Shown: in pieces, positions 5,619 to 61,428 of the stretch
Position numbering within the stretch: position 1 is the stretch's first letter
Layout of the letters: each line of letters opens with the position of its first letter
Assembly: GCA_964016885.1 (NCBI GenBank)
Contig: OZ024741.1
Coordinates: 261,702,001-261,766,000, forward strand
Source of the DNA: Eledone cirrhosa
Taxonomy: Eukaryota
Direction of reading: 5' to 3'
DNA length: 64,000 nucleotides
Notes under the pieces: model-generated
Told to the model about the DNA's origin: nothing
Seen by the model: only the letters and a program-made list of their open reading frames with translations
Databases searched by the model: none
Program-made: the position numbers and the translations under genes

Positions 5619-6504
5619 GATATTAACAAATGGAAACTATATTTATAAAACCATATTTATTTCATTATACATATTTCAAGGACACCAAGTTAAAATATGG
5701 TGTGCTTTCATCAGATAAAATATAATATAGAGAAAGAGAAAGATAGAGAAGGAGAGAGAGAGAAAAAGAGAGAGAGAGATAGAGAAAGAGCAGAACAACA
5801 GAGAGAGAAAGATGGAGAGAGAGAGGAGAGACAGAGAAAAGGGGAGAGAATGAAAAACTCTAAGTCATATCTTGTTGAGTTAACTTAACAATTGAAATGA
5901 AATGAATAAATAAAATTAGAAATGTTAATAATCATGAATGGAATATACATATATAATAGGAGAAATTTAACCATTGTTTAAATATGATTAGATGTTTAGT
6001 TAATCATTTAAAATATTGAGATCAATATATTAAAAATTGGGATCTATATATTAAGAAATCCATATATTATTAAAGATCTATATATTATATAGCACGGATC
6101 TGGTCTTTCTCTATCTCTCTCTCTTTTTTTCTCTCTCTCTCCTTCTCTATCTTTCTCTTTCTCTGTAACCCAACGGCTTATTTTAAAAATAAAAATATCC
6201 AATACTAATAATATAATTAAAGCTACACCTCCACTATCCGGGAGCTTCCAACAGCAATGGTTGCATTCTTTAAGGGTATGTCAATATTTATTTATAAAAC
6301 TGATCTATATTATATTTTATCTGATGAAAGCACACCATAATTTAAGTAGGTGTCCTTGAAATATGTATAATGAAATAAATATGGTTTTATAAATATAGTT
6401 TCCATTTGTTAATATCGTATTTTTACTCCAAATATTTGTTGAGTGCTTTATATCAGTTATAAAAATATTTGCTTGTTGTTTCCCAACAATTTAAATAGAA
6501 CCTT

Positions 6505-6507
<3 letters not shown>
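5617..6507 (+). mobile_element. ORF-less PLE derivative made of inverted pLTR segments, related to the 1716-5544 family
   Basis: 5617-5725 is an inverted copy of 6308-6418. The 3' end resembles 5280-5544. Bounded by (TA)n. Confidence 0.8.
6314..6376 (+). ncRNA. Type I hammerhead ribozyme motif, canonical core
   Basis: ATTTTAT-CTGATGA-stem II-GAAA-TATGTA-TA-ATGAAAT. The homologue at 5351-5413 has CTGATAA (C3/A8 mismatch). Confidence 0.7.
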
Positions 6508-6556
<49 letters not shown>

Positions 6557-7112
6557 AAAGTAGAATAGCTTTCACCGTATTTTTTACTAAAGGAATTTTA
6601 GCCTGATAATGGGGTTTAGACCCTCAGATAAATGGAAAAAGATGAATATTGACGTACATGTTTCAAAACATACTTACTTGATCTATATATATATATATAT
6701 ATATAATATTAAATTCAAATATTAATAAAATAGATGTTCTTGTGATCAATTAAATTCTATTATATATATTTCAGTGGTACGTGAATCAGGTTCAGCAGTA
6801 CGTCCTCATCAGATAAAATAAAATGATACATGATTCACGTACCTGATTCACGAACATGATTCATGAACCTGATTCACGTACCTCTGAAATATGTATACTA
6901 AAATTTGATTGATCACAAGAACATCTAATTTATTAATATTTGAATTTAATATTATATTAATAACTCTGGAAAATATGTACTGTAGAGTGCTTCCAATCTA
7001 CTGTAAAACTCATTCTTTGATGTACTCATTGAATCTTGTTTAACTCTTTAATATATATTGCTCCCAATTGGTTGAGCGTTTTTCTATACAATAGATTGCA
7101 TATTCAATAAAT

Positions 7113-9330
7113 ATGGATTTCTTAAACTTCCCGACATCCCTCAAGAATATACCAATACCTTCAAATGAGGAATACATGAGGAAAGTTATCGAACAAACAA
7201 ACTCTTTTATTAGAAGAATGAGATGGCGAGCATTTCATTTCGAAAATAAAGATGCTGAAAGAAAAACCAACAGCAATCATTTCGAATCTTTATTTAAATC
7301 AAGAAAGAATCCTCCATACAACAAACTCCTGGAGGATTTTGAAACTGAAATGCTCGATATAATTAAAAAAATTAAATTTAGGAAAAACCCATTTATAGGT
7401 CACCAATACCTTAGAACTCTAAAAGAAAAAATCACGGAAATAAAAAAATGTTAACAAAATATTTGTTAAATCGGAAAAAACAAATAATTTATATCGGATA
7501 AACAAAGAAGATTATAACAACTTGATTTTAAAGGAACTTAGGAAAAATTATAAAAAAGCCCCGGCTGAAGATCTTACAGAAATTAACGAGGATGCTTATA
7601 AATTAATTACCAACTTAAGAATAGAAGGAAGAACCGAGCCACTTATACCTAGGCAACCGCGGATTAACCTAAAAGATCACAAAAGAAACTTTGAGGAAGA
7701 TATGCCAGTTAGATTGATTGCTCCATCCAAATCAGATATTGGAGTAATCAGTAAAAACATCATCGATAGAATTCTACCTGCTCTTAAATTGAGATCTAAT
7801 TTGAACTTGTGGAAAGATACAAATAAAGTCATAGAATGGTACAAGAATATAGATGATAAGAAAAACCATGAATTCATCCAGATGGACATAACAAGCTACT
7901 ATTCTTCCATAACACCCAACCTACTAAATAAGGTTCTTTCATACGCTTATAAGCATACTGATCTAACCACGGATGAAATTGATATCATACTAACAGCTAG
8001 AAGAACTCTTATTAACTTCAACAATGAGTATTGGACCCGCTCAGATAGAGATAGAAACTTTGATATTACTATGGCGGCATCCGATTCTGCGCAAATCACA
8101 GATCTTCTGGGAATTTTCATATTATATATGATATATATAAAACTGCCGGAGATTACCGGTGGTTTATATAGGGACGACATTTTATTTACGGTGGTCAAAC
8201 ACAACAATATTACTAAATAGAGTAAAGAAAAGTATAATTGAATTCTTTAAAATGTCCGACCTTAAGTTAGAAGTAGAAAATGGTACCAAAATAGTTAATT
8301 TCCTAGATGTTACGTTTAACTTAAACTCTCGCTTTTAATACTCTTTTCATAAGCCCAATGAAAACTTAAACTATGTTAGTTACTACTCTAATCACCCTAA
8401 ATCTGTAAAAAAGGCTATAGTAAATAGTGTGCAAAAACGCATTAATAGAATATCAGCCAATAAAGCAATATTTGATGTAAATGCAGGATACTACAACGAA
8501 GCGCTAAAAAGAGCAGGATACGAGAATAATATAGAATATGTAGATAATAATAAAAATAACGGCATATATAAACGAAATCCTAATTATAATTCAAACACCT
8601 ATATGGCGAACAAACCGAGGAAAAGAACTACAACTAAATCAGTTATATGGTTTGCCCCCCCCCCTCCCGCGCTTCAGTAGCAGTTAGAACACCAATTGCA
8701 AACCTATTCTTTAAAGCTTTGGACCGCTCTTTCCCTAGTCAACATAAATACCATTCCATTTTTAATAGACACACTATTAAATTATCTTATTCTACAACTA
8801 TGAATATGGCCCAAAACATTGCTAAAATAAACAGTAAAATTCTAAAGCAGAATCAGCATAATGATTTTAATAATAGTGTTAACATAAATAATAATAAATC
8901 AAAATGTAATTGTAGAAATAAACCTGATTGCCCTCTGCAAAATAATTGTTTGGATAGTAATTTGGTGTATAAATGCACCGTAAAAAACTGATTACAACAC
9001 ATACAACTACATAGGATCGACTTCTTCTACATTTAAGGCTAGATTTGCGAATCATAAATGCTCATTTTCGAATTCTAATAGGAAATCATCAACTTCTTTA
9101 TCACAGCTTATATGGTCATTAAAAGACAAAAATTTAAAATACTCCTTCTTTTGGACGAAACTTTGTAATAGTGGAGTTTACCGCAATTCAAGTATATCAA
9201 GTAACTGTCCGCTTTGTACAATGGAGACCCTTTTGATTATTAATAATTATGAAAACTTAATTAACAAAAAAAGTGAATTATTCTCAAACTGCCTTCATAA
9301 AGCCTTGTCTACATTCCAAACCTCGCATAA
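7113..9330 (+). pseudogene. PLE RT-GIY-YIG ORF with several frameshifts
   Basis: SLKNIPIP..RMRW, LKDHK, QMDITSYY, GGLYRDD, NFLDV, SNHP, CNCRNKPDCPL, VYKC..NYIGST motifs spread over ORFs starting at 7113, 7522, 8429 and 8647. Confidence 0.92.
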
Positions 9331-11085
9331 GACCAGGAAAAAAACATTAAGCAACCAAGCCTGGTTTTTAGACGTACATCACCAACTGTTGAAAATATAA
9401 ATCTTAATGGCTTATCAAACTTTAATATTGCTTTATCTTCTAACCATCTATAAAGGAAATGACGTTTGAATGAATGACATTTGTTTAATAACATGCTGCC
9501 ACGTTGATATACATAACATGGCTTTTGGGATATTTTTATCTTTGATCCAGACCTTTATTTATCTATCTTTATTTTTCTATCTCTGTTTTAAATATAGTTT
9601 AAATATCTAACCTGTAAATTTTTACGGACCTTATTTTGAACTGTTGATATACATAACATATGGCTTTTGGATATTATTAACTTTGATCCAGACCTTTATT
9701 TCTCTATCTTTATTTTTCTATCTCTGCTTTAAATATAGTTTAAATATCTAACCTGTAAATTTTTACAAACTTTATTTTGAACTGTTGATCATTCACGCGT
9801 TTACATTTTTTTGTTGTATATATATATGTATGTATTTTATTTTATAGTTATGCATGTATGAATCTATTTTCTAAGAGTATAATCGTTTTCCTTTACCAAA
9901 AGTATACTGTCTCATTAATACTTAGTATATCTCTCTATATGTAGTTTTTGCAAATATGTTTATATCGTATAATAACATAATTCATAATTATTGTTAGGTA
10001 CTTCTCTGTATATAGCTTTGTGCATTTATCTTTATAACGTATAATAACATAATAATAATTATTGTTCGGTATAACGCTATATATAGTTTGTGCAAATATA
10101 TGTATATTGTACAATAACATAATCATTATTTAGAGTTCGTTCTTCCATTGAAGCTAGAACTAATATAATGATTTAATATAATATAATAAATAATAATTTA
10201 TAGTCCTCTTATTATGATAAATGCACGCACATATATATATAGCTGTAAACTCTGCGTTAATTATTATACTTTAGACAATATATCTATTTAACAATAAATT
10301 CCTCGATATTTATAACAGTAAGTACTTCATAGATTATACATACCGAAAATGTTGACACTGTTACAAGTAATTTTGTTAAAGATTACATTTATGTGAATAT
10401 TGAACAGTATATATTCTTCTTTCGCGGGCTTAGTAAATCATTTAAATTTGTTTTCATAAAACTTCGAATTTTAGAAATGTAACACATTTTTTAAATTTAT
10501 AAAACTTATAAAATTAATACAAATAACCATCAACTTTTAAAACCTAAAATTTATGTGAATATATGAACAGTATATATTTTTCTTTCGAGGGATTAGTAAA
10601 TCCTTTAAATTTGTTTTCATAAAACTTCGAAATATAAAATTTATTAAATTTATAAAATTAATACAAATAACCATCAACTTTTAAAACCTAAAATTTTGAT
10701 TCTTCACCCTAAAATAACATAAATTAAATATTTTGAAATTTAACTGCTAAGTCTATACGTGTCCGATGAACATTTCTGCATAAATTACTCCCCTTTATCT
10801 CTCCCTCTCTTTAATTATCTATCAGTTGATTTCTCAAGCCAAAACATTATAACTCCAGAGACGCCTTCCCCTATAATCCTAATTGTAGTATCCCAGATTT
10901 TAAAAACTCTAAAACTGTTACATTAAAGCAATGTTTTTCCTTACTCACACCTTCTCTATTGATTCTATTACGTTTTCCCATGTTCTCACTATTAGGGTAT
11001 AAAAGTTGAGTTTTCTCATACGTTAATCACTACCTTGATTAAATCGTAACCATCTAACATCTCAGGGTATGTCATGTATCATTTT

Positions 11086-16529: not shown

Positions 16530-19522
16530 TAGTAGTAAAGTGTTCGTTGTTGTGATAATGGTTAGCAGGGATGTGTGTGCAAACCGCAGCCTGTTGACAG
16601 TTCAAATGCCTATTAAGACAAGTGTGTGTGTGAGTGTGTGTGTGTGTAGCAGAGTAATTCGTGGTAGAGGGATGGTCAGTAGGAAAGTGTCTGTAAGTGA
16701 GTGAGGATATTTTAACATGTTAAAAGATATTTTTCTGCTCTTGTCTTATACGGAGAAGTGTGTGTGTGTGTGTGTGTAGCAGAGTAATTCGTGGTAGAGG
16801 GATGATCAGTAGGAATGTGTCTGTAAGTGAGTGGGGGATATTTTAACATGTTAAAAGATATTTTTCAGCTCTTGTCTTATACGGAGAAGTGTGTGTGTGT
16901 GTATAAGTCTCTTTGTATGTTAATGTACGCGTGTGTATGTGTGTGTGTATATGTGTGTGTATGTGTGTGTGTGTGTGAGTGTGAGAGAGAATGTGTGTGT
17001 GTGTGTGTGGGTGGACCAGTATTTTTTTCCCTGGTAAAATGGTGTACATTATTCGATATTTTCAGTGAAATCGATTCTCTCAATAGAACATCAAAAACCT
17101 TAACAATAAAAGGTGTGAAATGATATTCACTATACATATATATATACATATATTCACTATATATATATATTTTTTTGTGTTGCACCATAGAACATGTGTG
17201 TTTACGTATGTCATTGTGTTTATATGTGGGTAGAGATGTGTGCTGATGTAGGTATGTATGTTGACGTGTGTATGTTGTGGGTTCGTCTTAGGGAGAAGTG
17301 TTTAGACGGGGTCCGTATTTGTTAATAAAGTAAGATTCCTTGCTGATGCGCTGGGTGTGGGTGGCATTATCTTTAAATTTGTAGAGGGGAAAGATTCTGA
17401 AGTGGGGATGATTTTGGGCGGCACAGGTATCAATGTGTTCACTCAGTGGTATTTTCCTGTATTACCGTATTTTAATTTGGGATCTATGGACAGTCATGTG
17501 TTGGCGGAGGCTGTTTTTGGTCTGGCTTATGTATTGTTCTCGACAAACTGAGCAAGTTAATACATATATTAGATTTTCTGATGCTCATGTGAAATTGTGT
17601 TTTACTATAAAACGTTGTCCTTCTTTGAAATAGAATTCCGAACCCTCTATTAGGTTGATGCAAATGCCACAGTTGGGTCTATCGCATTTTTTTTACTGCG
17701 GGTTTCGTTGTTGTGGTTGGCACTACTTTGGCATGTGTTAGGATGTTTTTTATTGACTTAGGTTGTCTTTTGCTCTTTATGATATCGTGTGTTCGTAGGA
17801 TTTGGTTCATTCTATGGTCCTTTTTCAACACAGGGATGTTCTGGAGGATGGTGTCAAAGGCCTCATTGTTGAGGGCGTTGTGTGTGGAGATGTATGGAAG
17901 AGCTTTTAGTTTCGGTTGATTTACTTTAGGGTGTCTAAGGTCCTGGGTACTGAGCTTTAGGGCACGTTGGATTCCATTGTCAATCCCTGCCTATGAGTGT
18001 GTCCTTTAGTTCTTGTAACCGTAAGTAGCAGGTGTTTTTATTGGAGACTATAGTACAGATTCTCTTGGCTAAGTTGTAGGGAATATTAATTTTAATGTGT
18101 CTAGGGTGGCAAGAGTTGAAAGGAAGATATTGCTTGGAGTCTGCGGGCTTGTAGTATATGTCTGTTTCTATTTTTCTGTTATGGATCTTAATGAGGATGT
18201 CGAGGAAGGGGAGTTGTTGATGGCTGTATTCCATCGTGAAGTTAATATTCGTGTTGAGCCCATTTATAAGGGTGTGAAATTCTTTAAGTTTCTCGACGTT
18301 TTCGTGCCAAAGGATGAAGCAGTCATCTAGATATCGCTTCCAGTTCCTTTCTATGTGTAAGTGGAGAGTGTTTCAAAATTTGTTTAGAACTTTAGTGTAG
18401 AGGGTGATTTCCAGGTATCCCATGACTAGGTTGGCATAAGTGGCGGCTGTTTTCGTTCCCATAGCGGTCCCAGATTTCTGCCTGTAGGGTTTGTTATTGA
18501 AAACGAAGTAATTGTTCTCCAAGATAAATTTGAGTCCCTCTATCACGAATTCTTTTTTGATGCGTTGTGGGAGTTCATTGTGGTAATTATCCAGCCAGAA
18601 TTGGATAGCTTCTATTCCTAGGTTGTGGGGGATGTTGGAGTATAGGTTGACTACATCGAACGTCACTAGTAGGGTTTGTTCAGAAAGTGGCATATTAGGG
18701 AGGTGATTGAGCATATCTAGGTCGTCCCTTATATAGCTTCTGATGTGTTTGAGAAAGGGCTTGAGAAGGGTATCAAAGTTGCTAAGGCGGTGGGTTTCGC
18801 AAGCGGGGCCTGCTATTATAGGTCTTAATTTGAGATCATTGGGTGCGGGGACATTGATGACTATGTCTGTGGCTTCCTTGCATGCCTTACTTATTAATTC
18901 GCTTTTATGTACTTTAGGGATACCGTAGAAAAGGCTGGATTTACTTGTGAAGTCTGTGATGAAGCTGAATTCCTTGTTAGTGAGTCCTTCTTTGTATTGG
19001 TTGATTAGAGTTTTTAGGTTTCTCATAATTTTCTGTTGATTGTAGTGTTCTGCCTTGCTGCGGTTCGCACACACATCCCTGCTCTCCATTATCACAACAA
19101 CGAACACTTTACTACTACTACTACACACACACACATACATATTTGTTGTGAAATAGTCATTTCTCAGTCTTGGCGCAAAATCAATTTTTTACATTCACAT
19201 GACCTCTACCGACCAATCAAAATTGTTTTGACCACAAGAATTTTTGCAACACGAGTTGGCGCAAAAACCAATTTTAATAGCGCTGGAGCCACTTTTTTAA
19301 CATAAAAACAGGTAGAATTCCCAAAACTAATCAGATCAGAGCAAATATCACGGACGCTCTATCTCAAAATTATTTTTGAAAAGCATTTAGAAATGCGCAA
19401 CCGGTAAAACTTAAAACCAAAACTGAATACTAACCAATACAATTACTAATTCTCATTTATTCCTAATTAAACTATTTTTCACTGTGAACAATTTGTCAGC
19501 ATTTTCTATTCCGTTTACCAAA
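16037..19522 (-). mobile_element. 5'-truncated PLE (Neptune-like) with inverted pLTR
   Basis: RT motifs YGIPKVHK, RPIIAG, FDVVNLY, GTAMG, RYLDD, PFLD and SCHP at 17980-19060. GIY-YIG remnant at about 17350-17700. 16037-16590 is an inverted copy of 19057-19522. Confidence 0.92.
19373..19409 (+). ncRNA. Variant hammerhead motif (U3-A8, A13C); identical copy on the minus strand at 16169-16205
   Basis: TTT-TTGAAAA-GCATTTagAAATGC-GCAA-CCGG-TA-AAA. Confidence 0.55.
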
Positions 19523-21139: not shown

Positions 21140-21660
21140 GTATCATAAAAGAGTGAAAGGTTCTATGTGGGCAAGAATGTACAATTTCATATCTAGAGTT
21201 AAGGAGATTAATTTTAGAGGTAACTATTTCTAATGCTTCTGTCAATCAAAGCTTACATTTAGTTCTACCTCCACTATAGAACTTTGCTGAATTAATAATA
21301 CTTCATCTGAAAGAGTACTGAAAAATTTTTCATAATTGAATGAGTGTATATGCTTATAGTATTTTGCTTTAAATTTATTGGTGGTAGCTCCGTTTTAATT
21401 AAATGATTTATTATTAGTTAGAACCTCACCTGTATACTTTATATTACTTCTAAAGCATTCACTTCTAAGGGGTCATGCTTCTGCAATTCTACAGTTACAA
21501 TTATTAGCAGACTTTTAACGTGCTTCATATATTTATTATTATCACCATTATAGTTAGCAGTGCTTTTGTTCCTATTACCTACGATTTCAGGCTGGCTTAG
21601 TATGGGAGCTTTTCTTTTTTTAGTTCATATAAGTCCATTTTCTCATAATTATTCATATCT
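21140..21660 (-). mobile_element. PLE GIY-YIG 3' fragment
   Basis: CNCR..CP, C.LCLTEALEI..LLN...SCPH motifs in disrupted frames. Confidence 0.75.
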
Positions 21661-30699: not shown

Positions 30700-33600
30700 A
30701 AATACATCTATCTAGGGCGGGTAAAATTCCCGAGATCCATGGACAAGTTCTCTCCAGCGGTCTCTGTCCCTCATTATCGCTGCCATGTCCTGTATCTCCA
30801 ACAGACCAGTGGCTGTCCTTAGGGCATCAACATATGTTAACCTCTGTCTTTCTCTTCCAGCGTGTCCATGCAGGGGCTCCAACAAGAGCACTGAGTGCAG
30901 TGTCAACTCTGGATGTCGGTGAGCATGTCCAGCTAACCCCAGTCTCCTCTGTGTCACTTTTGAGCTGACTTTGGGAGGCTCCCATACAGCTCTGAGTTCT
31001 TCATCCTCAGTGTATACTGATTAATGTGCAGAGCCATCCTCAGCATTCTCGTGTATCACCCGTCCACCATCTGAGTTAGTTTCTGGTCAGTGTCCAAATC
31101 TCAGACCCGTACAGCAGCACAGACTCCACTACAGCAACGAAGAGGCGGATCTTCAGGTCTTTACGAAGGTTTGACTTCCACACCGATCTCAAACTGTAGC
31201 ACACCGCCCAGATTGGCTCTTCCTCTCGACCACATCATCTTCCATATCCCCAATCTTTGCTCCCAAATACAGGAAGTCCTCAACCAATTCTAGCGGCTTC
31301 CCGCCTACATTAGTAATCTTCTCTGGCTTCTTAATATTCTCTACCAGATATTTCGTCTTAATCTCATTCATTCTCAGCCCCGCACCCATCGACACAATCT
31401 CCACCTCCTGCATCAAATCCTCTGCCTCCTTCACTGTGTGTGTCATGAAAACTATGTCGTCGGCAAATTCAGCATCCGATTTCTTTTTTGCCTTAATTCT
31501 GCTGCTCTGAACCGTTACAGTAAAGCCAGAAGCCTGGTGTTTCTCCAGCGCAAGGCGCATACAATAGTCCAATGCAATTATAAAAAGATAGGTATCCAAT
31601 ATATCTCTCTGGAGCACTCCAGCCAGTATCTCAAAGAATTCTGTCATCCCATCAGGTGAAATGACTTGGGCTTTGGTGTTGGTGTAGATCTGTGATATCA
31701 GGTCCACTATCTTCTTGGGGATTCCATAAGCTTGTAATATTTTCATCAGGCAGTAACGGTCCACAGAATCAAAGGCCTTCCTAAAGTCAATGAAAACCAT
31801 GACCGCAGGAAGGCACTTTGCTCTAGCTCCCTCTGTCCTTCTCAGCATCAGGATGTGACTGGTGGTTGATCTTCCCTCTCTGAAGCCGTTCTGGTTGTCT
31901 CTGAGCTTCTTCTCCATCTCTGGCTGGATCCTGTTAAGAATCATCCTGTTGAGGGTATTTGTCACAAGTGACGTCAGTGAGATCCTCCTGTAGTTGTTAG
32001 TGTTAGAAATATCTCCCTTCTTTGGCACTGGGACGATGTTACTGATCCTCCACTGATTCGGGGCAACTCCTTTCTCCAGTGCCTGGTTACAGAACTCCAG
32101 GATGATATCATCAAAATAACACTTCTTCATCACCTCTGATGCCACTCCATCTTCTCCATGAGCCTTGCTCCCCTTGATCTTGTTCTTGGCTCTCTGAAGC
32201 TTCTCTGTGGTGAAGGGCCCTGTCTCAATATCCATCCAGTTCCTCAAACAGCCGCCCGATCTCCCCAGTGTTCTGGGCAGTATCCTCGGGCACTATTCCT
32301 TGGATCTGACTCGAACACCTTCTCCTTGTGATCTCGTTGATGATCATCTAGCTCTCCTTACATCCAGACCTGCCAACCGCTCTCTCCACACTTCTGATCT
32401 TCTCTATCAGTGCCTCCTCCCTGGCCTCAGTGTAAGCGGTACAGAGTTCTTCCCCCATCACTTCCACATTCTCCTTCTTCTCCTCCGTAGGATCAGCATA
32501 GAATTGGTCCTTGGCAGCTTTCAGGTGTTCTCTGGCTGCATAAACTTTTGTATCTGCAGAGCTGACGTGCTTCCTTTTGTTCTTTCTCCTAGGTACCAGG
32601 GTCTCACTTGCTTCTGCCACTGCATTGGTGAAGTACCCGTACCTCCTCGTCACACTCTTCTCAGTCCCTCCAATCTCTCTCTCCTCTGTCTCTCCATAGA
32701 GATCACTGAACCTGTTTCTCACTTCTATTGAGAACCTCTTCTGTAGTTTATCATCTTCCTTGAAAGCTCCCCAGATTGCTCTCCGGGGCTGAGCCTTGCT
32801 CTTTCTTAAGCTCACCCAGACCTCACTCATAACAAGCCGGTGGTCACTGCCCAGTGTACTGAAATAGTTGTATGGTTTAGTGTTCAGAACACTATTCCGC
32901 CACTTTTTTCCTCACCAGAATGAAATCAATCTGGGTCTTGGACAGGTGCATATCTGAGATGTAGGTCCACATCTTCCCCAGATTCTTCCTAAACCTTAGG
33001 TTGGTTGCTATCAAGTTTGCCTCCAGAAGGATGTCTCTCAGAAGTCTTCCATTTCGGTTGGTGTTGTTATGGAAGTACCAGCAAGGATCTTCACTGCCCT
33101 CCTTACTCATATGTGCATTGAAGTCCCCACAACAAGTAGGATGTTGTGAGCTTGTGTGGTGTTGACAGCTCTACACATTTCCTCGTGGAACTCTTCCGCA
33201 CTCACATCACTGTATCTCTCGGTTGGACTATAGGCTGAGATGAATGTCAGTCTTGGGTTTCCATTGAAGGTCACCCTCGACACTCGTGGGGAGACAGGTA
33301 TTATTTCCCTCAATAATAGATTGGATTTTGCGCTGAAAACAAAACCCACTGCTCCTACTGCAGCATTGGTCATGTTCTTCACTGTGGTGTTGAGCTGGCT
33401 CCTCTTCCCAATCATCACACTCCTCACGTGCTCATCGTGTAGGATCCTGTGTTCTTGGATCGCAAGTATCTGTATACCATTCTCCTCAAACAGATGACCT
33501 AACTACTCCCTCTTCTCCAGCGTCGAATAGTTCTCACATTCAAAGTGTCCATTTTGATGGCTCTTCTGCAGGACATAACTGCATTCTATATATTTGTCTC

Positions 33601-33740: not shown

Positions 33741-33975
33741 TTTTCAATGGCTGACAATATCTTACTAGCGCCACTCGAATAATGCAATTATTTAACCCAT
33801 AAATGGGGCCCTAACAGGTACTATACTCCGGGCCAGAGCAGACCTTGAAGTTATGACAACTAAGTGGTAACTCCACATTCCCCACAGCTCCTGAACTCCT
33901 AAACTGGAGCCTTGCCACTGGATGTAGTTTAATGCCGTACCCAGGACATGAAATATATATATATATATATACTTA

Positions 33976-35927
33976 GCACGCAGGGAGGCAGAGAGTAGGA
34001 GGTTTCCCAATGTTCTGCGACGGGAAGATCAGGGGCGTGCGGTGTTCCACATTGCAAGGCAGTGTGTCAATGCAAATCAGGATGTTGTTGGAGATAAATG
34101 TGTCCGGGATGATGCCAGTGTACTTAGTGTCACGAATGACCAGAAAAAGGAGGCCTGGAAATGTCATTATGAGAGACTGATGAATGTGGAGAACGAATGG
34201 GAGAGAGAGAAATTACCCTTGGTAGATCCGACAGAGGGACCAGCTATTGAGATTGACGAATATAGGGTCCAAGAGGCGATTAGGGAAATGAAAAATGGTA
34301 AGGCTGCCGGACCATCGGGAATAGTTGCTGAGATGCTGAAGGCATCAGGGGACGTAGGCACTAAACTGGTTGCACGCATCATCAATCAGGCTATATATGG
34401 TGGTGTCATACCCAAAGACTGGTGCAGCAGTATTCTCATAAATTGCTACAAAGGTAAAGGGGATGCTTTGGAGAGGAGCAATTATAGGGGTATAAAACTG
34501 ATAGATCAGGTTATGAAAGTGTCAGAAAGGATTTTAGCACAACTAATTAGAGAAAGGGTCAAACTAGATGAGATGCAGTTTGGTTTTGTGCCTGGGAAGA
34601 GTACAACAGATGCCCTCTTCTTGGTGAGACAAATGCAAGAGAGGTTCTTAGAGAAGAATAAGCCACTATACTTAGCCTTTGTTGACCTAAAGAAGGCCTT
34701 TGATAGGGTACCCCGATCTGTCATCTGGTGGTCCCTAAGGAAGCTAGGTGTTGAGGAATGGCTTGTGAGGACAGTGCAAACTTTGTACAGAGGTACTCTC
34801 AGTAAAGTCAGGGTAGGAATGGAGTTTAGTGAGGAATTCCAGATACAAGTAGGAGTACATCAGGGTTCGGTCCTCAGCCCGCTCTTGTTCATTATAGTCC
34901 TCCAAGCCATAACAGAGGAGTTTAAGACTGGCTGTCCATGGGAACTTCTCTATGCTGACGATCTGGCTCTTATAGCAGAATCAGTAGAGGAGCTAGAGAA
35001 TAAATTCCGGCTATGGAAACAGCAGTTGGAAGCAAGAGGACTGAGAGTAAATCTAGCTAAGACAAGTGTTGATGAGTAGAAAAGAGGACAAAACCCTGAT
35101 TCCGTCAGGGAAATAGCCATGTTCGATATGAAGAAAAGGAACTGGCATAAATTCTATAAAATGCACACAATGCAGGTCATGGGTACACAATAGATGTAGC
35201 GGGATAGCAGGCAAACTAACAGGTAGGGAGAAATATGTATGCAGTAGATGTACAGGGAAATTAGACACTAGAAGTCGCACTGATAGTCACATTTTTCAAA
35301 TGCGAGAGGGCGCTATAGAAGTGGTGGATAGCTTCCGGTACCTAGGAGATCAGATTAGCATGGGAGGAGGGTGTTCCGAGGCCATAGTATCTAGAATAAG
35401 GACGGGTTGGAAGAAGTTTAGGGAGCTGCTACCTCTGTTGACGAAGAAGGGTTTCTCCCTGCGTACGAAAGGCCGGTTGTATGATGCCTGTGTGAGGAGC
35501 ACGATGCTGCATGGTAGTGAGACATGGGCAGCAACCGCAGAGGATATGCGACGGCAGGAGAGAAATGAGGCAAGCATGCTCCGTTGGATGTGCAGTGTAA
35601 ATGTGCGTGAACGACTCAGCATAAATGTGTTGAGAGAGAAACTGTGTCTGAGAGGGATAGAATGTAGTGTACGGGAGAGGAGACTGAGGTGGTATGGACA
35701 TGTGATGTGCATGGAGGATGACCGATGAGTGAAGAAGTGCCAGGAAATGCCAGTTGAAGGAAGACGTGGTAGAGGTAGACCACGAAAAACATGGGCGGAG
35801 GTGGTGAGAACAGACCTCAGATCATTGAAGCTCACGGTGGAAATGACGAGGGACCGTGACGAGTGGAGAGATGCTGTGCTGAATAAGACCCGTCCCACCC
35901 TTGCAAGCAGGGAAAAGCGGACGTAAA

Positions 35928-39625: not shown

Positions 39626-39725
39626 ACATGTGAATATATATATAGTAATAATAATAAATGTGAGTTTCATAAGATGAAAGGGTGAAAGCAGCGATTCTTT
39701 GCTTAAACTTTAATCTGTTATTTTA

Positions 39726-39808
<83 letters not shown>

Positions 39809-41071: not shown

Positions 41072-42354
41072 CTGAAAGGGATTCAAATGTAACAATATGA
41101 ATATAATCAGTTTTAATAGGTTAAATTATAACACTGAATTGTTTCAGAGAAAATAATATATATTCTCTCTGTTTCAGGAAAAGTAATATGAACAGGGGAG
41201 TGTAAAATGGGAAATGTGATTCTTAACTTGATAGTAAATGAAACGTTAATTTATAGTGAGTCGGGAATTTTATAATTACCGAAAATTATAAATTTAGGAA
41301 TAGAAGCAATCATATTGCTGTAGTTCTATAGAGCCATACTACCAACCAAAAACATACGCACTGCTGTTTTCACTTTCAATTAAAGTTAATTAATTAATTA
41401 GATAATTACTTCATTATGGAATTGGTTAAAGACTTTCATCACAACCTTATATACAACTGTGTAACCTTGTGTTCTTCCTCTTTATTAGTATTTATTTCAA
41501 GGTATTTATTCCCCTTACAAAATATCATGGTGGATTTCATTTCACATATTGTACTATTTATTATTCAGTTGAACTGTAGTGTATGTGTGTTTGTGTGTGA
41601 CTGCTTGTATGTGTATATCATATATCTATATTTATTACCCATAATAATAAATATTCGATGACTTGGAACACACTCGATGCTCCAATAATGTATTTACAAA
41701 TATAATGGTAAGAAACTCTCAGGAGAGCTGGACTGCAGAAGGTCTATAGAAAAGAAACCCCCATCAAGCATTTAAGCTCTTAATTTCAATGAGATATATT
41801 TACATATATATGTATATGTATATATATGTATATATATCTCCCTGAAATTAAGGGCCAAAATGCTTGATGGGGATTTCTTCTCTGTAGACCCTATGCTCGC
41901 ATTATCGGAGCTGCGATTTCTCAATTTGGAGCAGTGGCGTCTCTACCTGGAGATACTCTCTGAGGAACCCCCCATTTCATTTGCAGTTGTATTCCTTCTG
42001 CCATTACCCAACATTCATGCCCCTAGGTAAGGTTTGGCACGAATACCGATTTGAAGTTAGCGAGTTTATCTTTTACATCTGATCCCACATTTTTCTGATA
42101 ATTGAATGCTGAATCTGGCGTAATACTGCTACAATTCTTGCACTTAATTCAGCCTCCATCACTAGTGAAAGCGACCCCAAGATACTTGAATTCCTCTGCC
42201 TTCTTTGAAAATCAACTCACATGTTAAGTGATCTACATAAGCTCCCTTAAGGTGACGATGAACTGTCTCTGCAGCAGGGATTTTCATTCCTGCTTTACAG
42301 CATTCGGCAGAAACATATTAAGTGCATATACATAAATATATATATATATATATA

Positions 42355-42657
42355 TTTATTAAAATAACAGATTAAAGTTTAAGCAAAGAAGCGCTGCTTT
42401 CACCCTTAACGGGATCTTCTGAAACTAACAAAGTCAATCTGTAAACGCAGAACTGGATATTTCAAAAAACGTTGCAACCGGAGGAAGACAGGAAGACGAT
42501 ACTTTGGTTCATGGTGACGTTCGCTGGCAGCAGCGATTCTTTGCTTAAACTTTAATCTGTTATTTTAATAAATATTTGCTCTTCGGTTCTTATATATTTG
42601 ATATATATTTTCCTTATCGAGCCCTCTCTGGATTTTAGTCTTCAATTTCATTATTAT

Positions 42658-42706
<49 letters not shown>

Positions 42707-43115
42707 GAAGGTTCAGTAAGTCCGAAGAAAACTGGTGAGAGGCCCAAGGTCACTACTCAACACAAAGCAGAGTGTATATAATAACAAAGTGGAGGATTTA
42801 CATAGGAGATTTATTGCTCAATTCTGGTTACAAATGTTTCTCAGGCCGCAAGCTCGTGATATATTTATATATATATATAGTAATAATAATAAAAAAATTG
42901 AAGACTAAAATCCAAAGAGGGCTCGATAAGGAAAATATATATCAAATCTATAAGAACCGTAGAGCAAATATTTATTAAAATAACAGATTAAAGTTTAAGC
43001 AAAGAATCGCTGCTTTCACCCTTAACGGGATCTTCAGAAAAGTTTCAGAAGATCCCGTTAAGGGTGAAAGCAGCGATTCTTTGCTTAAACTTTAATCTGT
43101 TATTTTAATAAATAA

Positions 43116-43190
<75 letters not shown>

Positions 43191-43415
43191 AATAACAGAT
43201 TAAAGTTTAAGCAAAGAATCGCTGCCTTCACCCTTAACAGGATCTTCTTTTTTTAGTTACAGAAGATCCCGTTAAGGGTGAAAGCAGCAATTCTTTGCTT
43301 AAACTTTAATCTGTTATTTTAATAAATATTTTCTCTGCGGTTTTATATATTTATATATATTATCCTTATCGAACCCTCTTCAGATTTTAGTTTTCACATT
43401 TATTATTATTGCTAT
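42355..43415. mobile_element. Cluster of three ORF-less hairpins built from the pLTR of the 56743-60465 PLE family
   Basis: 42355-42660, 42875-43112 and 43188-43415 each contain opposed copies of agtttcagaagatcccgttaagggtgaaagcagcgattctttgcttaaactttaatctg, separated by (TA)n. Confidence 0.88.
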
Positions 43416-49468: not shown

Positions 49469-49949
49469 TGTTATACTTTGGGAGGGTCATGTTGCCAATA
49501 AGAAACACACGCACCAGTTGCTTTCACTTCAATTTATTATATATTTATAAATTTATAAATTTACAAATCTACAAACTTATAAATTTCTGGTTGGTTGGTT
49601 GGTTCCACAACCAGATAGTTGTTTATATATAGTCATAGTCCTTTCGTCACACACTCTGTGACCTCTTCAGTGACTGGGGATTCCTTTCTTTGTTTCTGTG
49701 CCTTTCCTTTCTTCTATCCTACGCTATTTTGTTTCTGTGTGTGTGTTGTGTGCTCAGTTTGCGCATGCGCCACATCCGGGTGTCTGTGTGTGTTTGTGTT
49801 CATTTATCTATTTGTTTATTTATTTATTTATTTATTTTTGGTTGGTTGTTTGTTCTATATGTGTGTGTGTTTTCATTTTGTCCTGTGTGTGTTTTCATTT
49901 TGTCCATAATTGTAAGTTGTGATGTTGCTGTTCCACTCATATTTTCTAT

Positions 49950-52113
49950 TTAATTTGGTTGTAATTCTTTTATGCTTACTGCCTCTGTAATTTGCCTAAA
50001 CATTGCATCTTTTCTGTGTGTGGATTCTATTTTTATTTCTATGTTCTCTAATCTACCCCTGTGTTCTATCTTAGCATGTTGGTAGAGCACAGATGATTCT
50101 TTATTATCTTGAAGGTCTCGCCAGTGTTCATTTATTCGTTCCCCTATACTACGAGCTGTCTCACCTATGTACACTATATTTTTGTTTCTACATTGTCCTT
50201 CAGTACATCTTATGCTATACACTACATTTCTAGTTTTACAGTTAATATGGGGGCTTATTTTACAGGTTATACATTTCTTATCTATACATGAGGATCTTTG
50301 AAACGGGTATGTCTTGCTAATAAGTGTTTTTACGGAAGTACCTGGTCTTTCTACTATCTTAATATTGAGTTTATGTTTATTTAGGGCCCTTCTAAATTTG
50401 TAGGCTAGTTCGCCTCTAGGGGTTGTATTGATGAACATTACACTCTGGTATTTATTGCTATCATACCATGAGTTTATTCTATTGGCCTTGTTCCTAGTTC
50501 TTTCTATTCTATTCCAAAATTTGCTCCTATACAAGGGGAAGGTCCCATTTATGTCATTATTTACCATTTTTTCCCATTTGGTTCTGGCTCCTCTATACAC
50601 TCTGATTCTATCTCTCTGATTGTAACCAGAGAACTGCATACGGTGGATGAAGTGTTGTATGTGTCTCTCTAGTTCTTCGGGGTTGCACATGCGGGACACA
50701 TTTCTCATCACCCGTACCAAATCCGCAATCAGTATGTTGATTTTGGTATGGTCCGAAATGGCCGAGTTTCGGTGGATCAAATGTTTGGAAGTCATGGGTT
50801 TGGCATAATGGGAATGGAGGATTTGTTTTTGGTTGTTAATGGTATCTAACCAGAGCTCTGTGTCTAGTACAGGTAATCGATGGTTGGGGTGTCTACTTGG
50901 GTAGTCTATAGTAACTCTAATGCTCTGGTGGATGGAGTTTGCTATTTGCTGGATGCTTTCCATTGTATTTTTCTCTAGTTCCTGACTGTTCTTTAGTGGG
51001 GGTGTCTTAACTACGATGTTTATATCATCTACGTAGCGGGAGTACATTATCAGGGTTAAGCTGTCTTCTAATTGTTCTTTAAGTTTTTGTTTAAGTCTAC
51101 TGTCCCACCATACCATGAATAAGTTAGCTATGTCGCCTGCAATGCTAACACCAATGGCTGCTCCTTCCCCTTGGGCATATGTTTTACCATTAAATTTGAA
51201 CATATGTTCCTTAAGGGTTAATTTTATGCTGGCCCCTACCGCATGTGCAATCATTTTCTTCAGTTCATCGTGGTTTTCGGGTGTCCGTATGGCTCTGGTC
51301 CACCCGTTCCATCTATCTGTGTGGGTTTTCTTGGCCATTGAGGTAATGGTAGGTGGTCTGCCTCTTGCTGGTCTTGTAGGGCACAGGTTGCTAAGGTCAT
51401 AAGTGTCTAGGTAACTATTACTATGGGTAAGCTTAAGTAGAAGTCCCAGCTCACTGGTATCAATCCCACGGAACTCAACCTTGCTCTCGCTGATCATTTC
51501 TACGCATTTCTCCACAGCAAAATCCACGTCAATAGATGGATACAGGGACACAACATCCATACTGCCTATTATGCAGTTTGTTAGGTCCCCAGATCGGTTA
51601 CTCGCGCCGATTCTGCTGAGGAGGTCCTCCGTGCTGTCACATACATCTGGGGACATCTCAATGATGGGGCGTATGATCAGGGAGAGGAAGTAGGACAGTC
51701 TGTAGTTACTAGCAATGTTAGCTCCACAGACTGGCCGTGTTGGTGGTCCCGCGACAGGGTCACAGCCCGTTTTATGGTCTTTTCGAAGCCCATACAACGC
51801 CGGCACGTCATTGTTCCAGGCCTGGAAGTTGTTGGCAGTCCTTTTGTTGGGCTGCATTATATTCGTCCACATCACCATATGGGCATTGAGGGCTTTTTCT
51901 CTATCCTCATGCTCCTGTGGTGTTACCTTTCTTGTGTTAGTGATGTGGGGTTGCATTGCCTGGATGTAGTTTGGCAGGCTCTCAACCGACATTCTGCCAG
52001 ACTTGTCTGTTGGAAAGCATGCTATCTCTCCATTACGCGAGCGCTGCATGAGCTTACGCAAGCCATTTGCAGATTTTTCTCCCAGTTGCTTGGCCTCTAT
52101 TCTATTATGCTTC
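49950..52113 (-). CDS. PLE RT + GIY-YIG, open frame lacking the N-terminus
   Basis: TDKSG, YGLRKDHK, RPVCGA, SMDVVSLYPS, GAAIG, RYVDD, VLD, VYSIRC..YIGET. The first about 80 aa of the 800 aa ORF call are antisense copy. Confidence 0.9.
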
Positions 52114-53105
52114 TTGGACGAATATAATGCAGCCCAACAAAAGGACTGCCAACAACTTCCAAGCCTGGAACAATGACGTGCCGGCGTTGTATGGGCTTCG
52201 AAAAGACCATAAAACGGGCTGTGACCCTGTCGCGGGACCACCAACACGGCCAGGAGCAAATTTTGGAATAGAATAAAAAGAACTAGGAACAAGGCCAATA
52301 GAATAAACTCATGGTATGATAGCAATAAATACCAGAGTGTAATGTTCATCAATACAACCCCTAGAGGCGAACTAGCCTACAAATTTAGAAGGGCCCTAAA
52401 TAAACATAAACTCAATATTAAGATAGTAGAAAGACCAGGTACTTCCGTAAAAACACTTATTAGCAAGACATACCCGTTCCAAAGACCCTCATGTATAGAT
52501 AAGAAATGTATAACCTGTAAAATAAGCCCCCATATTAACTGTAAAACTAGAAATGTAGTGTATAGCTTAAGATGTACTGAAGGACAATGTAGAAACAAAA
52601 ATATAGTGTACATAGGTGAGACAGCTCGTAGTATAGGGGAACGAATAAATGAACACTGGCGAGACCTTCAAGATAATAAAGAATCATCTGTGCTCTACCA
52701 ACATGCTAAGATGGAACACAGGGGTAGATTAGAGAACATAGAAATAAAAATAGAATCCACACACAGAAAAGATGCAATGTTTAGGCAAATTACAGAGGCA
52801 GTAAGCATAAAAAAATTACAACCAAAATTAAATAGAAAATATGAGTGGAACAGCAACATCACAACTTACAATTAAGGACAAAATGAAAACACACACAGGA
52901 CAAAATGAAAACACACACACACATAGAACAAACAACCAACCAACAATAAATAAATAAATAAATAAACAAATAGATAAATGAACACAAACACACACAGACA
53001 CCCGGATGTGGCGCATGCGCAAACTGAGCACACAACACACACACAGAAACAAAATGGCGTAGGATAGAAGAAAGGAAAGGCACAGAAACAAAGAAAGGAA
53101 TCCCC

Positions 53106-56688: not shown

Positions 56689-56745
<57 letters not shown>

Positions 56746-57282
56746 ATAATAATAAATTTGAAGACTAAAATCCAAAGAGGGCTCGATAAGGATAAATATA
56801 TATCAAATATATAAGAACCGTAGAGCAAATATTTATTAAAATAACATTAAAGTTTAAGCAAAGAATCGCTGCTTTCCCCCTTAACGGGATCTTCTGAAAC
56901 TAACAAAGAGATTATCAGTCTACGACTTCTTTTATACCATAAACGTGGTTTTGTCTTTGCGTGTAATTGTTTTTCACCGCTCCGTTCTTTGCCAGGGAAC
57001 GTTTCCACGAACCAAAGAATCGTCTTCCTCCGGTTGCAACGTTTTTTGAAATATCCACTTCTGTGTTTACAGATTGACTTTGTTAGTTTCAGAAGATCCC
57101 GTTAAGGGTGAAAGCAGCGATTCTTTGCTTAAACTTTAATCTGTTATTTTAATAAATATTTGCTCTACGGTTCTTATATATTTGATATATATTTATCCTT
57201 ATCGAGTCCTCTTTGGATTTTAGTCTTCAAATTTATTATTATTACTATTTGGCTCCCTCGGTTGAGCACTCTATTTACTTAT

Positions 57283-59417
57283 ATGATCATGCAGAAACAA
57301 CATCTGAATATTTCTACAAAGAACATACCCGTACCAAGCAGGAAAACATACCTAAAACTCCTGATACAGAAAACAGACGCGTTCATTAAAAGGTTGCGTT
57401 GGCGTTCCTTTTATTTCGATAATCCGCGAAAAGCAGACAACAAACAGGATAAATTTGGGTTTAAAACCTATAATAACCCTCCGTGTAACCCAGCATTGCT
57501 ACTCTTCAAAAATGATGTCTTGGAACTCATACGGAGTATCAAATTTCGGAATAGGAGCAATTCCTTCCAGCAGGACCTGAAGAATAGAATTCGTTCTATT
57601 AAGGATTCTAATGCCGTGCACGTCCATTCCGACAAAACTGGCAACCTATATCAAGTAGAGTGCAGTACTTACCATCAACTACTACATAATGCTGTAACTA
57701 AGGATTACCGTAAAACTAATCGGTGCGTCATCAATGATATCAAGGATGGTGGGTTTAAAATCACCTCTGATCTCAACATCCTGGACCGGACCGAACCCCT
57801 GGACCCTATTTCTCCCCACTTTACCCTGAAGGATCACAAATCGAATTTTCCGAACAACCCCTCTATTCGGCTTATTAACCCTACAAAGTCCGATTTAGGT
57901 AGACTTAGTAAAAGGATTCTTGATAGAATCATACCTGAAATTAGAAGTTTGGCCCCTCTTGCACTGTGGAACAATTCTTTTGCGGTGATTGATTGGTTCA
58001 ACGGCATATGCAACAAGGAACATTGCCGTTTTATCCAATTCGACATCAATAATTACTACTCCTCTATCACTTTACCACTTCTCTTTAGAGCTATCAATTT
58101 CGCTAAAACACTCACAGAGGTTAAGGATTTCGAAGTTGATATCATCCCCATGCCCGTAAGTCGGTGATTAATTTCGACGACTCTATTTGGATAAAAAAAT
58201 CCAATAGTACCCCATTCGACGTGAGTATGGGCGCCAGCGATTCTGCGGAGGTTACTGATCTTATCGGCCTTTTCCTTCTTTTCTCTATCAAGGACGAATT
58301 CCCCAACGCGGGCGGTGGTTTGTACCGTGATGACGGTCTTTTGACCATGACTAAGTGCGGCCCTCGTGCTTGCGACAGGTTCAGAAAAGAACTCATAGCC
58401 TTCTTTAAAGGCTTCAACCTCTCGATACAGTTTGAGGCCAACCTCTCGGTCGTTAATTACCTCGACGTTACCCTCAATTTATCGAATGGCTTGTATTACC
58501 CGTATAGAAAGCCGAATGATACGCTTAATTACATAAGTAAGCATTCCAACCATCCTGCCAGCATACCCATGAACCTGGTAAGAAACGTTTCGTTGAGGCT
58601 TTCCTGTCTATCTACTAACGAGCATATTTTCAACGACCATTTCACATATTACAATGAAGCTCTTGCTCGGAGTGGATTTGTCGATAAGGTAGTATATACA
58701 GAGTACGAGAATAGACCTAGAAGAAATAGATCCCGACGCATTATATGGTATAACCCACCATATAATATGGAGGTGGCCACACCATTAGCTAAGATCTTTC
58801 TATCCATTATTACGAAGCATTTTCCCTCTACACATAAATATATTAAAATTTTTAATAGAAGTACTATTAAAATTTCTTACTCTACGACTCCTAACCTTGC
58901 ACATAACACCACAGCTTCAAATTTAGCTAAACTACCTAGCCGTAGGAACACGTGCAACCCTGTAGTTAGTACTAACTGTAATTGTAGGAATTGGGTTGAT
59001 TGCCCCCTATCCGGGAAATGCCTCTCTAGTAACATTGTCTACAAATGTAAGGTTGAAACACCCACGTCCCGTAGGGCCTACATAGGGTTAACCGCCAATA
59101 GATTCAAGCAGCGTCTTTACATGCATACCCATTCTTTTCGTTACCCTCTAAGAAGGAATATGACGTCACTTTCAGCTTATATCTGGAGTCTAAAAGACAA
59201 CCACACCCAATATAAGTTACACTGGGAGATCCTAGCTAGGGCTAGATCGTATAACGGAAACAAAAGACCATGTGACCTCTGCGCCGCTGAGGCCCTGGAA
59301 ATACTCTACGCTACAGACCACATCTTAAACAAAAAATCTGAGGCAATTTCGGCTTGTAAACATAAATTGCATAAAACTTTTCTGTATTACAGCCCCACAT
59401 TATACCCTAACGGATAG
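57283..59417 (+). pseudogene. PLE RT-GIY-YIG ORF, about 710 aa, one frameshift near 58147
   Basis: STKNIPVP, SDKTGN, LKDHK, QFDINNYY, MGASDSAE, LYRDD, NYLDV, CNCRNWVDCPL, VYKC..AYIG, CDLC..CKH. Confidence 0.93.
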
Positions 59418-60392
59418 TATGATCTATACGCGGATAATTTACGTCTTGATGTGGTAGCTAAGTATATGTTATGTTTATACCATTACTTATTTGCATAGGT
59501 AAGTATATATTACCTGTATGTTTCGTGAAGGTGCGTATACTTTCTAGTACGTATATTTGATTGTATATGTTATGGCGTATATTTTATATATACTGGTACA
59601 TATGCTTTTGGTTTTGTGTATACATGAGTTTTGCGTCTGTGTGAGTATGCGGGTTCGTACGTATGATGGGTGTGTGTATATGTGTACTTCGTGTTTTGGT
59701 TGACGTACGTCTCCGAACATTTGTGTATTTACATGTAGGTATGTGTGTGCATTCGTTATATACGTATTTATTTATTTATATACGTTTAGATAATTATTTG
59801 TATACACGCACACACACATACATATTTATATGTACGTGTTTTTGTATACCTATGGCGAGTGTTTTGCGTATGCGTGTTTTGCGTATGCTTGTATACCTAT
59901 GGCGAGTGTTTTGCGTATGCTTGTGTTTTGCGTATGTATTTGGATGCGTGTATGTATTTATTTAATTTCTATTACCTCTGTATTTTATTTACTTTATTCT
60001 TAACTCTGAAGCGGAGAATCATTCGGTTTCCTAGTTAGAATTTTAGTCTACGACTTCAGTTATACCATTTACGTGGTTTTGTCTTTGCGTGCAATTGTTC
60101 TCCATGCTCCACATATGACGTGTTATCTTCGTTTTCTCCGTTCATTGCCAGAGAACGTCTCTATGAACCACCTAAGAGAATATCAGTCTACGACTTCTTT
60201 TATACCATAAACGTGGTTTTCTCTTTGCGTGTAATTGTTTTTCACCGCTCCAATTAATGACGTATTATATTCGTTTTTTCCCCGTTCTTTGCCAGGGAAC
60301 GTTTCCACGAACCAAAGTATCGTCTTCCTGTCTTCCTCCGGTTGCAACGTTTTTTGAAATATCCACTTCTGCGTTTACAGATTGACTTTGTT

Positions 60393-60443
60393 AGTTTCAG
60401 AAGATCCCGTTAAGGGTGAAAGCAGCGATTCTTTGCTTAAACT
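60393..60443 (+). ncRNA. Variant hammerhead motif (U4A); copies at 57085-57135, 43041-43091, about 43255 and on the minus strand at about 42376-42426 and 56851-56901
   Basis: AGTTT-CAGAAGA-T-CCCgttaaGGG-T-GAAA-GCA..TGC-TT-AAACT. Confidence 0.6.
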
Positions 60444-61428
60444 TTAATCTGTTATTTTAATAAATATATATATATATATATATATATACTTGGCGTGGCA
60501 ATAAAATCTTTAGAATAACACTTTAAATGAAAATGCATGAATGCAATAACATCTTTACAGTCTTATGCAAAGCATTTAACTCTGTCTGGAACCATTTCTT
60601 CGACAATTTTCGAAACCAGCACAACGATTCATCTACCACCTCTTCTAATCAAGCGAAAACACATTTTCAAAGATGTTGCTTTAAAAATTTGAACACCCAG
60701 CAATTGCACAAATTTAAGTCGGGACTATAGGGTGATTGTTTGATTATTGCCACTTATCCTCTAGAAAATTTTTTTTTGTGGATTGAGCAGTTCGATGCAT
60801 GTATTATAAACTCACAAAAGGGACAGCAAAATATTATGCATGGCCTGTGACAAAATACAGCATTCATACAGAATATTACACGTGTACAACAAAGTTCAAA
60901 TTCCAACTAATATTAACTACATTTACTGCTATATATGGCACACACACTATTATTGTAAAGACTTTATTGCCACACCAAGTATATATATATATATATATAA
61001 TAATAATTTCGTTTATTGGCCACAAGGGCTGAATAATAATAACCTGGTGGTTATCATAATAATTGTTTCTACTTTTGGCACAAGGCCAGCAATTATCCCA
61101 GTGCATTACTGGTATTTTATTTTATCGACCCAGTAAGGATGAAAAGGAAAGTTAACCTTGGCGAGATTTGAACTCAGACCATAAAGGGGCGTAACTCTAT
61201 GCTGCAAAGTATGATGTCCGACCCTCTACCAATACTGCCAATCCACTGCTTTTGGTGGTTATCATAATAATTGTTTCTACTTTTGGCACAAGGCCAGCAA
61301 ATACCCAATGCATTACTGGTACTATATTCTATCGACCCCGGAAGGACGAAGTCATCAGATAGGATAAAAAAAAAGTTGATCATTTTCCCACTCACTCGAT
61401 GTTCTAATTAAGCTAGTATCCTTAAGAT

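Follow-up and report, generated by a model that had tools for sequence, protein, structure and literature searches.

In the Hydra clade of the Penelope-like elements (PLEs), the hammerhead ribozyme is described as universal, and the elements of this clade are generally smaller than 3 kb (PMC8557442). Metazoan PLE hammerhead motifs show low activity (PMC4209133), and the hammerhead of the element PAc is protein-assisted, its catalytic mutants leaving insertion in vitro unaffected (PMC11167929). The role of the PLE hammerhead is thus unsettled, the motif being called universal in canonical PLEs and yet slow in vitro and dispensable for insertion in one element. Within the catalytic core, U at position 4 contacts the A6-N7 phosphate, and a natural U4C variant is much weaker in vitro yet supports viroid infectivity (PMC3088659). 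In a type III hammerhead, single and double mutants of the CUGA stretch were all of low activity, the C3/G8 swap excepted (PMC9901934). The present analysis concerns a PLE in a 64-kb stretch of Eledone cirrhosa DNA (contig OZ024741.1 of assembly GCA_964016885.1, positions 261,702,001 to 261,766,000, forward strand; hereafter the window), whose two pseudo-long terminal repeats (pLTRs) carry a hammerhead-like motif with the core CAGAAGA, that is, with A instead of U at position 4 (A4). Since it has the type I build of the Hydra clade and lacks the canonical U4 (A4 in 8/9 arms of the window; C4 in 80% of the depth in a further organism, K), the motif is hammerhead-derived and not a member of the canonical hammerheads.

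The motif extends over 57069..57144(+), as delimited by sequence, descriptor, a clade covariance model (15.9 bits, E about 0.04) and pairing probabilities. It consists of an outer stem Ib (57069-77 with 57136-44), a 7-nt bulge (57078-84) and stem Ia (57085-89 with 57131-35), which enclose the core (57090-96, A4 at 57091), U10.1 (57097), stem II (57098-100 with 57106-08), U11.1 (57109), G12-A14 (57110-12), stem III (57113-16 with 57126-29) and U17 (57130). The cleavage-site bases read C16.2-U16.1-U17, in agreement with the UU site of the original prediction, and the predicted cut lies between 57130 and 57131. The remaining canonical core is complete (C3, G5, A6, G8, A9, G12, A13, A14, A15.1-U16.1 and a non-G at 17). 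The 9-bp outer extension of stem I beyond the 7-nt bulge is new and has a predicted pairing probability of 0.94. Readings as a type III hammerhead from the upstream sequence, or as a hammerhead on the minus strand, were rejected by inspection, as neither offers a fitting core or stems. Descriptor and covariance model found the A4 motif only, so that a second, canonical hammerhead within the A4 element was rejected as well. No hammerhead family was among the 120 Rfam matches at E≤1, which equally missed the U4 motifs of the other PLEs in the window, and the exact motif pattern had no match in metagenome contigs and none in viral contigs.

The core is present exactly at 57090(+), 60398(+), 56896(-), 42421(-), 43046(+) and 43260(+). 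These six copies had been attributed to several separate insertions, and they are indeed distributed over four, the full-length element containing three of them. With up to one mismatch, an 11-base core pattern gave eight matches in the window (chance mean 0.69; 0/100 shuffles reached 8), namely the six exact A4 copies, one arm with U4 at 43037(-) and an unrelated match at 17833. Further A4 arms are those at 43248(-), which starts at position 4, and in a decayed copy at 39668(+). Among the window arms spanning position 4, eight of nine have A and one has U. Stems I to III, said to be largely intact, pair in the copies 57090, 60398, 42421 and 43046; in copy 43260 the stem I pair that closes the core is mismatched, and copy 56896 has G at 11.1.

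BLAST of the region against the window, together with alignment, identified five insertions, all of them in (TA)n. Apart from the element itself, these are a decayed short copy at 39642..39733(+), with A4, an altered G5, a broken stem II and a 22-nt inverted tail piece ahead of it; a separate insertion at 42352..42663, in which the minus arm holds the A4 core 42421 and the plus arm begins at A15.1; and two fold-back insertions. The first of the latter (42877..43114, placed by BLAST) has a plus arm with A4 (43046) and, at the junction, the minus arm with U4 (43037), whose stem I comprises 3 bp only. The second (43180..43415) has a plus arm with A4 (43260, the mismatch adjoining the core) and a minus arm beginning at position 4. 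The U4 arm had been proposed as a natural comparison for A4; as a single junction-derived arm with a truncated 3-bp stem I, it is not supported in this role. A quasi-palindrome of 7 nt has position 4 in its middle, the sense 7-mer giving U there when placed on the opposite strand, and this sense 7-mer is present twice at the fold-back junction of the U4 arm (43033 and 43044). For these reasons the lone U4 arm is most simply a by-product of the junction and no independent allele of the family, a point mutation being a possible alternative origin. A strand flip at the same quasi-palindrome may also have given rise to A4 itself, and such a flip would account for the lone U4 arm.

For comparison of the motif within the clade, 79 loci of related elements were collected. 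The descriptor, with position 4 left free, gave 53 matches in these loci (51 U, 1 C and 1 A; about 0.3 per shuffle). The single A4 match (L057), whose core is U3-A8 and whose stem II is poor, was treated as chance. A covariance model (R1) built from 22 clade motifs gave 66 matches in the same loci, of which 61 had U and two C, with three gapped at position 4; upon inspection the gapped rows proved to be two with C4 and one truncated, so that the final count is 61 U, 4 C and A in 0/65. When model R1 was applied to the window, five arms of the A4 family were the five best of 20 matches (15.9-21.5 bits, rough E 0.0008-0.04), with stem III not aligned. The A4 motif is therefore homologous to the Hydra-clade hammerheads. 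Judged from these alignments, the true departures of the motif from its clade are A4, the pair G15.2-C16.2 and a 9-nt loop III. At 15.2-16.2 the A4 family has G-C, in contrast to C-G in all 64 matches with letters at this pair, so that pairing is kept; the C15.2-G16.2 pair and the short loop III of the clade are both absent here. U·U at 10.1-11.1 and U17 were considered as signs of decay and rejected, both being clade-typical, and U·U at 10.1-11.1 is a known natural hammerhead variant (PMC3088659).

Among the related loci, L032:2420-2468(-) and L041:1319-1367(+) represent a second Hydra-type family with C4 in two 94%-identical copies, one of which (L032) has a 679-codon open frame; this family is possibly another lineage with a relaxed position 4. 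C4 also occurs in single copies at L034:1359-1396, L038:18-62 and L019:1813. L034 and L038 each share their contig with a sister copy that has U4, which makes C4 look like decay there, and the motif at L019:1813 lies behind a different reverse-transcriptase frame. At L070:2394-2437, a hammerhead of Hydra type shows U3-A8, a core swap already known.

Parts of the element were present in 17 of 21 listed public runs with 14 organism labels. Four runs were examined, and organisms are designated here by letters. The run of organism A, the best-matching organism, was chosen by its species label and consists of restriction site-associated DNA (RAD) reads, which sample loci unevenly. In this run, 4,843 reads lay over 57091, six of which read C, and no A-to-T row at position 4 was found among the 40 of 161 variant rows listed. 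Because 21% is the smallest share among these rows, U4 probably accounts for less than about 21% in organism A, a bound taken from the selection of rows and not a count. A contig of organism G spanning 56990-57159 shows three differences, and a contig of organism E over 57060-57098 two, all off position 4, so both have A4. Together with the eight of nine window arms, these data support A4 as a family trait and not the decay of single copies. In organism K, position 4 is C at 21,533 of 26,913 depth (80%), in 70 contigs; further differences lie in loop II at 57103 (97%) and at 57133 (36%, U-A to U·G). Since A is found in one lineage and C in organism K, position 4 has changed at least twice from a presumed U ancestor, with the other core bases retained. 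The variant form in organisms E and K diverges immediately past 57144, the end of the outer stem.

The host element has a single reverse transcriptase (RT) open reading frame (ORF) with a C-terminal GIY-YIG domain between pLTRs, broken by one frameshift. Its N-terminal part (57289..58167, +; from ORF and homologs) contains the RWR and DKT motifs and RT1-3, and its C-terminal part (58140..59417, +; from homologs) contains YRDD, NHPP, a CxCX5C linker and a GIY-YIG-type endonuclease with CxxC and CxH. As had been stated, there is a single frameshift, near 58140-58150, and neither half contains a stop; the status of this copy as the parent is not supported, because most reads disagree with it at several positions of the flanks. 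The first ATG (57283) is altered throughout the K depth and, in organism A, in about 93% of the reads that cover the base concerned, for which reason the likely start is the second ATG (57289), which agrees with the starts of homologs. Neither ORF half had a Pfam match at E≤0.001. The 34 longer protein relatives in the databases show 32-46% identity. Of the Hydra-clade protein marks, RWR (K in most homologs), DKT, CNC-x5-C, CDLC and CKH were found, with no CCHH, and there is no CxxC between the GIY-like and YIG-like halves. By these protein motifs, and not by an RT tree, the host element is placed as a Hydra-type Penelope-like retrotransposon. The unit 57160-60467 measures 3.3 kb, compared with generally under 3 kb in the clade, and has a low-complexity, partly duplicated 3' untranslated region (UTR). 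In the 3' UTR/pLTR, 60037-60170 and 60177-60314 form an 82%-identical tandem duplication. At about 60002-60040(+) a core-like 7-mer with 5-bp complementary arms and no GAAA box was noticed, which is possibly an old decayed motif or chance.

The 3' pLTR (60177..60467, +; from BLAST, covariance model and pairing) includes the second motif (60377-60452, core 60398, A4) and a terminal (TA)n. Relative to it, the 5' pLTR (56909..57159, +; BLAST/alignment) has two deletions with 40 gap columns in total. The pLTRs differ by only 4 substitutions in 251 aligned bases, and the A4 element family therefore looks young. An inverted, 5'-truncated copy with tail and motif (56740..56908, -; core 56896, A4) lies head-to-head with the 5' pLTR and shows 2 substitutions in 169 aligned bases compared to 57078-57248. 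The tail itself, of about 90 bp (57160..57248, +), is optional according to the alignment: copies stop at 57159 or 57248 and continue into (TA)n, and loose ends at these positions were found in 2,404 and 602 reads, respectively. The claim of recent activity with the A4 core is in keeping with the pLTR differences (4/251) and with ORF differences that are all synonymous (4/4, see below). Not supported are A as the specific working allele, because the sister lineage has C4, and the implied cutting by the motif.

The arms end at 57159 or 57248, and the 5' ends of seven of the nine window arms lie at 57078-57113, whereas none of the nine starts at the cut site, 57131. In the 15 joints listed (of 64), those with a strand switch begin at many positions between 57065 and 57129, and one lands at 57131. 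Read depth shows no step up at the predicted cut site. From the arm ends and the scattered joints, it is likely that the short copies arose independently of each other, as truncated products of copying past an uncut site, and are not themselves selected. Mostly uncut RNA would be the template of reverse transcription, which would start at 57159 or 57248 and pass through the motif, often stopping or switching strand near its 5' side, and this would yield the short and the fold-back copies. These copies, which have a 5'-truncated or fold-back look, would only passively record the A4 of the master. In organism A the depth is about 5,900-7,700 over the motif and about 190-480 at the ORF start, by which short derivatives exceed ORF-bearing copies roughly 20 to 1. 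Contigs of organism G that start at 57130 were considered as traces of cleavage and rejected, because this position lies 30 bases before the branch point at 57159, as expected from 31-mer assembly. Regarding the tail, 816 organism A reads have an unrelated sequence ahead of 57158 and 1,013 another one behind 57206, which suggests a different repeat sharing part of the tail.

The reading to which we lean, with slightly less than even confidence, is that the motif is an attenuated ribozyme, which would cut slowly or only together with the protein of the element and would be kept for its residual cut or for its fold. Over codons 1-37, which comprise 24 synonymous and 87 non-synonymous sites, organism K and the window copy show four majority differences, every one of them synonymous. 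The A and K lineages therefore both derive from masters that coded for protein, with a distance of about 17% at neutral sites; the synonymous divergence of about 17% of 24 sites compares with 2-3 changes in the 51-nt core motif between A and K. That position 4 changed at least twice and the ten other fixed core sites remained unchanged has a chance of about 0.09 (about 1/11) under neutrality. Among the variant rows listed, none falls on the eight other unpaired core sites, and one of 42 paired motif sites is changed, giving a U·G pair. Substitutions and U insertions concentrate in the 7-nt bulge and the flanks and spare both helix strands. In organism A, variant rows of ≥21% affect 0/69 motif sites and 22/301 sites outside (one-sided p=0.009). 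These observations are no more than suggestive of some selective constraint on the motif.

Several points weigh against an attenuated ribozyme kept by selection. The border of the 69-site motif was set post hoc, after the variant table, and the signal is modest: p is 0.35 for organism K alone (3/69 and 20/301), 0.066 for the union of A and K, and 0.056 when the 51-nt motif is used in organism A. The table itself holds 40 of 161 variant rows from unevenly sampled RAD loci. At a neutral divergence of about 15-17%, the absence of changes at 10 core sites has a chance of 0.16-0.20, and between A and K the tail downstream has changed about as little (6/113) as the motif. With regard to the fold, the hammerhead structure has -12.8 kcal/mol, 2.8 above the predicted minimum of -15.6 (z-score -0.75), the predicted pairing probability of stem Ia is 0.07, and a slipped register of stem III competes; it has to be considered that the folding models disregard core and tertiary contacts. 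All three helices are able to pair, and no compensatory change was seen inside the family. A helix of 57087-91 with 57109-13 was rejected as a conserved fold, as its probability is 0.33 with A4 and 0.03 in the K form.

It is rather unlikely, although this explanation survives best among the rivals, that the ribozyme is simply dead. The founding master would then have lost U4, the family would have gone on jumping because cutting was dispensable, and the conservation would result from the recent origin of the family or from overlapping needs such as a promoter, protein binding or template structure. Hammerhead catalysis is not necessary for PLE insertion in vitro (PMC11167929), and Naiad PLEs proliferate without canonical hammerheads (PMC8557442). 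The similar conservation of the tail and the departures from the clade, i.e. the exchanged 15.2-16.2 pair and the 9-nt loop III with its competing slipped register, would also fit. However, the exchange at 15.2-16.2 preserves pairing, variation and indels gather in the bulge with both helix strands spared, and the repeated change of position 4 beside ten constant core sites would be rather improbable for a neutrally decaying sequence.

In a successful lineage spread over several animal species, position 4 may alternatively be free to be A or C, with the motif still cutting usefully by means of a bulge-loop contact or the protein. This would make it the first natural U4A ribozyme or, otherwise, a case of selection against fast cutting, and we regard it as unlikely. 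A natural U4A hammerhead was not found in the literature searched, which covers PLE hammerhead variants only in part, and four non-U4 core strings had no match in one of the two supplement files of PMC4209133. More doubtful still is a fully working core variant, in which the 9-bp outer stem and the U-rich bulge, docking on loop II, together with A7 and G15.2-C16.2, would rescue the loss of U4. The bulged stem I resembles that of canonical type I hammerheads, in which a U of stem I pairs with an A of loop II (PMC2553840), stem Ib is predicted to pair with a probability of 0.94, and Perreault et al. propose that tertiary contacts may offset core changes (PMC3088659). The C4 family of L032 and L041, with its two 94%-identical copies and a 679-codon open frame, could be read in the same way. 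Against such a variant, complete single and double mutagenesis, as described in PMC9901934, revealed no rescue of CUGA except for the C3/G8 swap, two different non-U bases are more readily explained by relaxed constraint than by one particular new contact, and no copy begins at the cut site. Very improbable, finally, is that A4 is kept as a 3' splice acceptor (a pyrimidine run and CAG ending at 57092) of a 5'-UTR intron, as in Drosophila Penelope, where in D. virilis the intron extends up to the 5' end of helix I (PMC4209133): U-rich sequence is indeed followed by AG dinucleotides with their ends at 57072, 57086 and 57092, but C4 removes this AG in 80% of the organism K depth, the AG at 57086 already occupies the position used in D. 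virilis, and no spliced joint ending at 57092 was among the 15 of 64 joints listed, which derive from DNA or unrecorded libraries.

Whichever explanation applies, the family represents a natural experiment, in which a high-copy element with a protein under selection has had a near-invariant core base replaced at least twice and the rest kept. If the motif cuts, a class of ribozymes escapes the hammerhead consensus and all genome screens based on CUGANGA. Otherwise, the family would be a natural case of PLE spread without cutting, the fold having another use.

Other PLE families occur in the same window. A second, more broken Hydra-type family is located at 7095-9400(+), with motifs at 6812(-) and 11093(+) and 35-47% protein identity; it has a U4 core, a long stem II and U15.2-A16.2. 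Related hammerhead motifs are present at 1810(-), 5358(+), 5714(-) and 6321(+), and in 5358 and 1810 an A at position 8 breaks the C3-G8 pair. Another PLE at 49950-52376(-), in partial tandem and with motifs at 49670(-) and 53111(+), has an 808-codon open frame, U4 minimal hammerheads, and weak Pfam matches to RVT_1 and GIY-YIG. The open frames at 31189-33502(-) and 33952-35728(+) presumably resemble the reverse transcriptases of non-LTR retrotransposons.

With the described hammerheads of Hydra-clade PLEs (PMC8557442), the A4 motif shares the type I build, the position within the pLTR and the same orientation as the ORF, the short stem II, U·U at 10.1-11.1 (14/26 rows by our own count) and U at the cut site (10/26), and the elements share insertion into (TA)n and the protein motifs DKT, CxCX5C, CxxC and CxH. 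It differs from them at position 4, which is U in 26/26 listed rows (their descriptor demands U4), at 15.2 (C in 26/26), in loop III (1-3 nt, 9 nt here) and by the predicted 9-bp outer stem I beyond the bulge. The minimal PLE hammerheads (PMC4209133) likewise lie in pLTRs and are dispersed in masses as truncated single or opposite-strand copies, and their low activity is expected here as well. Among them, U3-A8 has already been described as a core variant of a whole family; it keeps the 3-8 pair and U4, whereas U4 is lost in the A4 family, whose stem III has sufficient length for a monomer. The Poseidon element PAc (PMC11167929) resembles the A4 element in its two 3' ends or initiation sites (the tail), in AT-rich targets and in copying from uncut RNA. 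PAc belongs to the Penelope/Poseidon clade, and its minimal motif was shown to cut with the help of protein, whereas cutting by the A4 motif is hypothetical. A non-U base at position 4 is not new in the form of C4, for which the viroid is a precedent; A4 in a propagating PLE lineage was not found in the literature searched. With the natural U4C viroid hammerhead (PMC3088659), the family has in common a non-U position 4 in a propagating element, matching the C4 of organism K and of L032/L041. In the viroid this is a sequence variant, whereas here it is a fixed change in a high-copy retrotransposon lineage.

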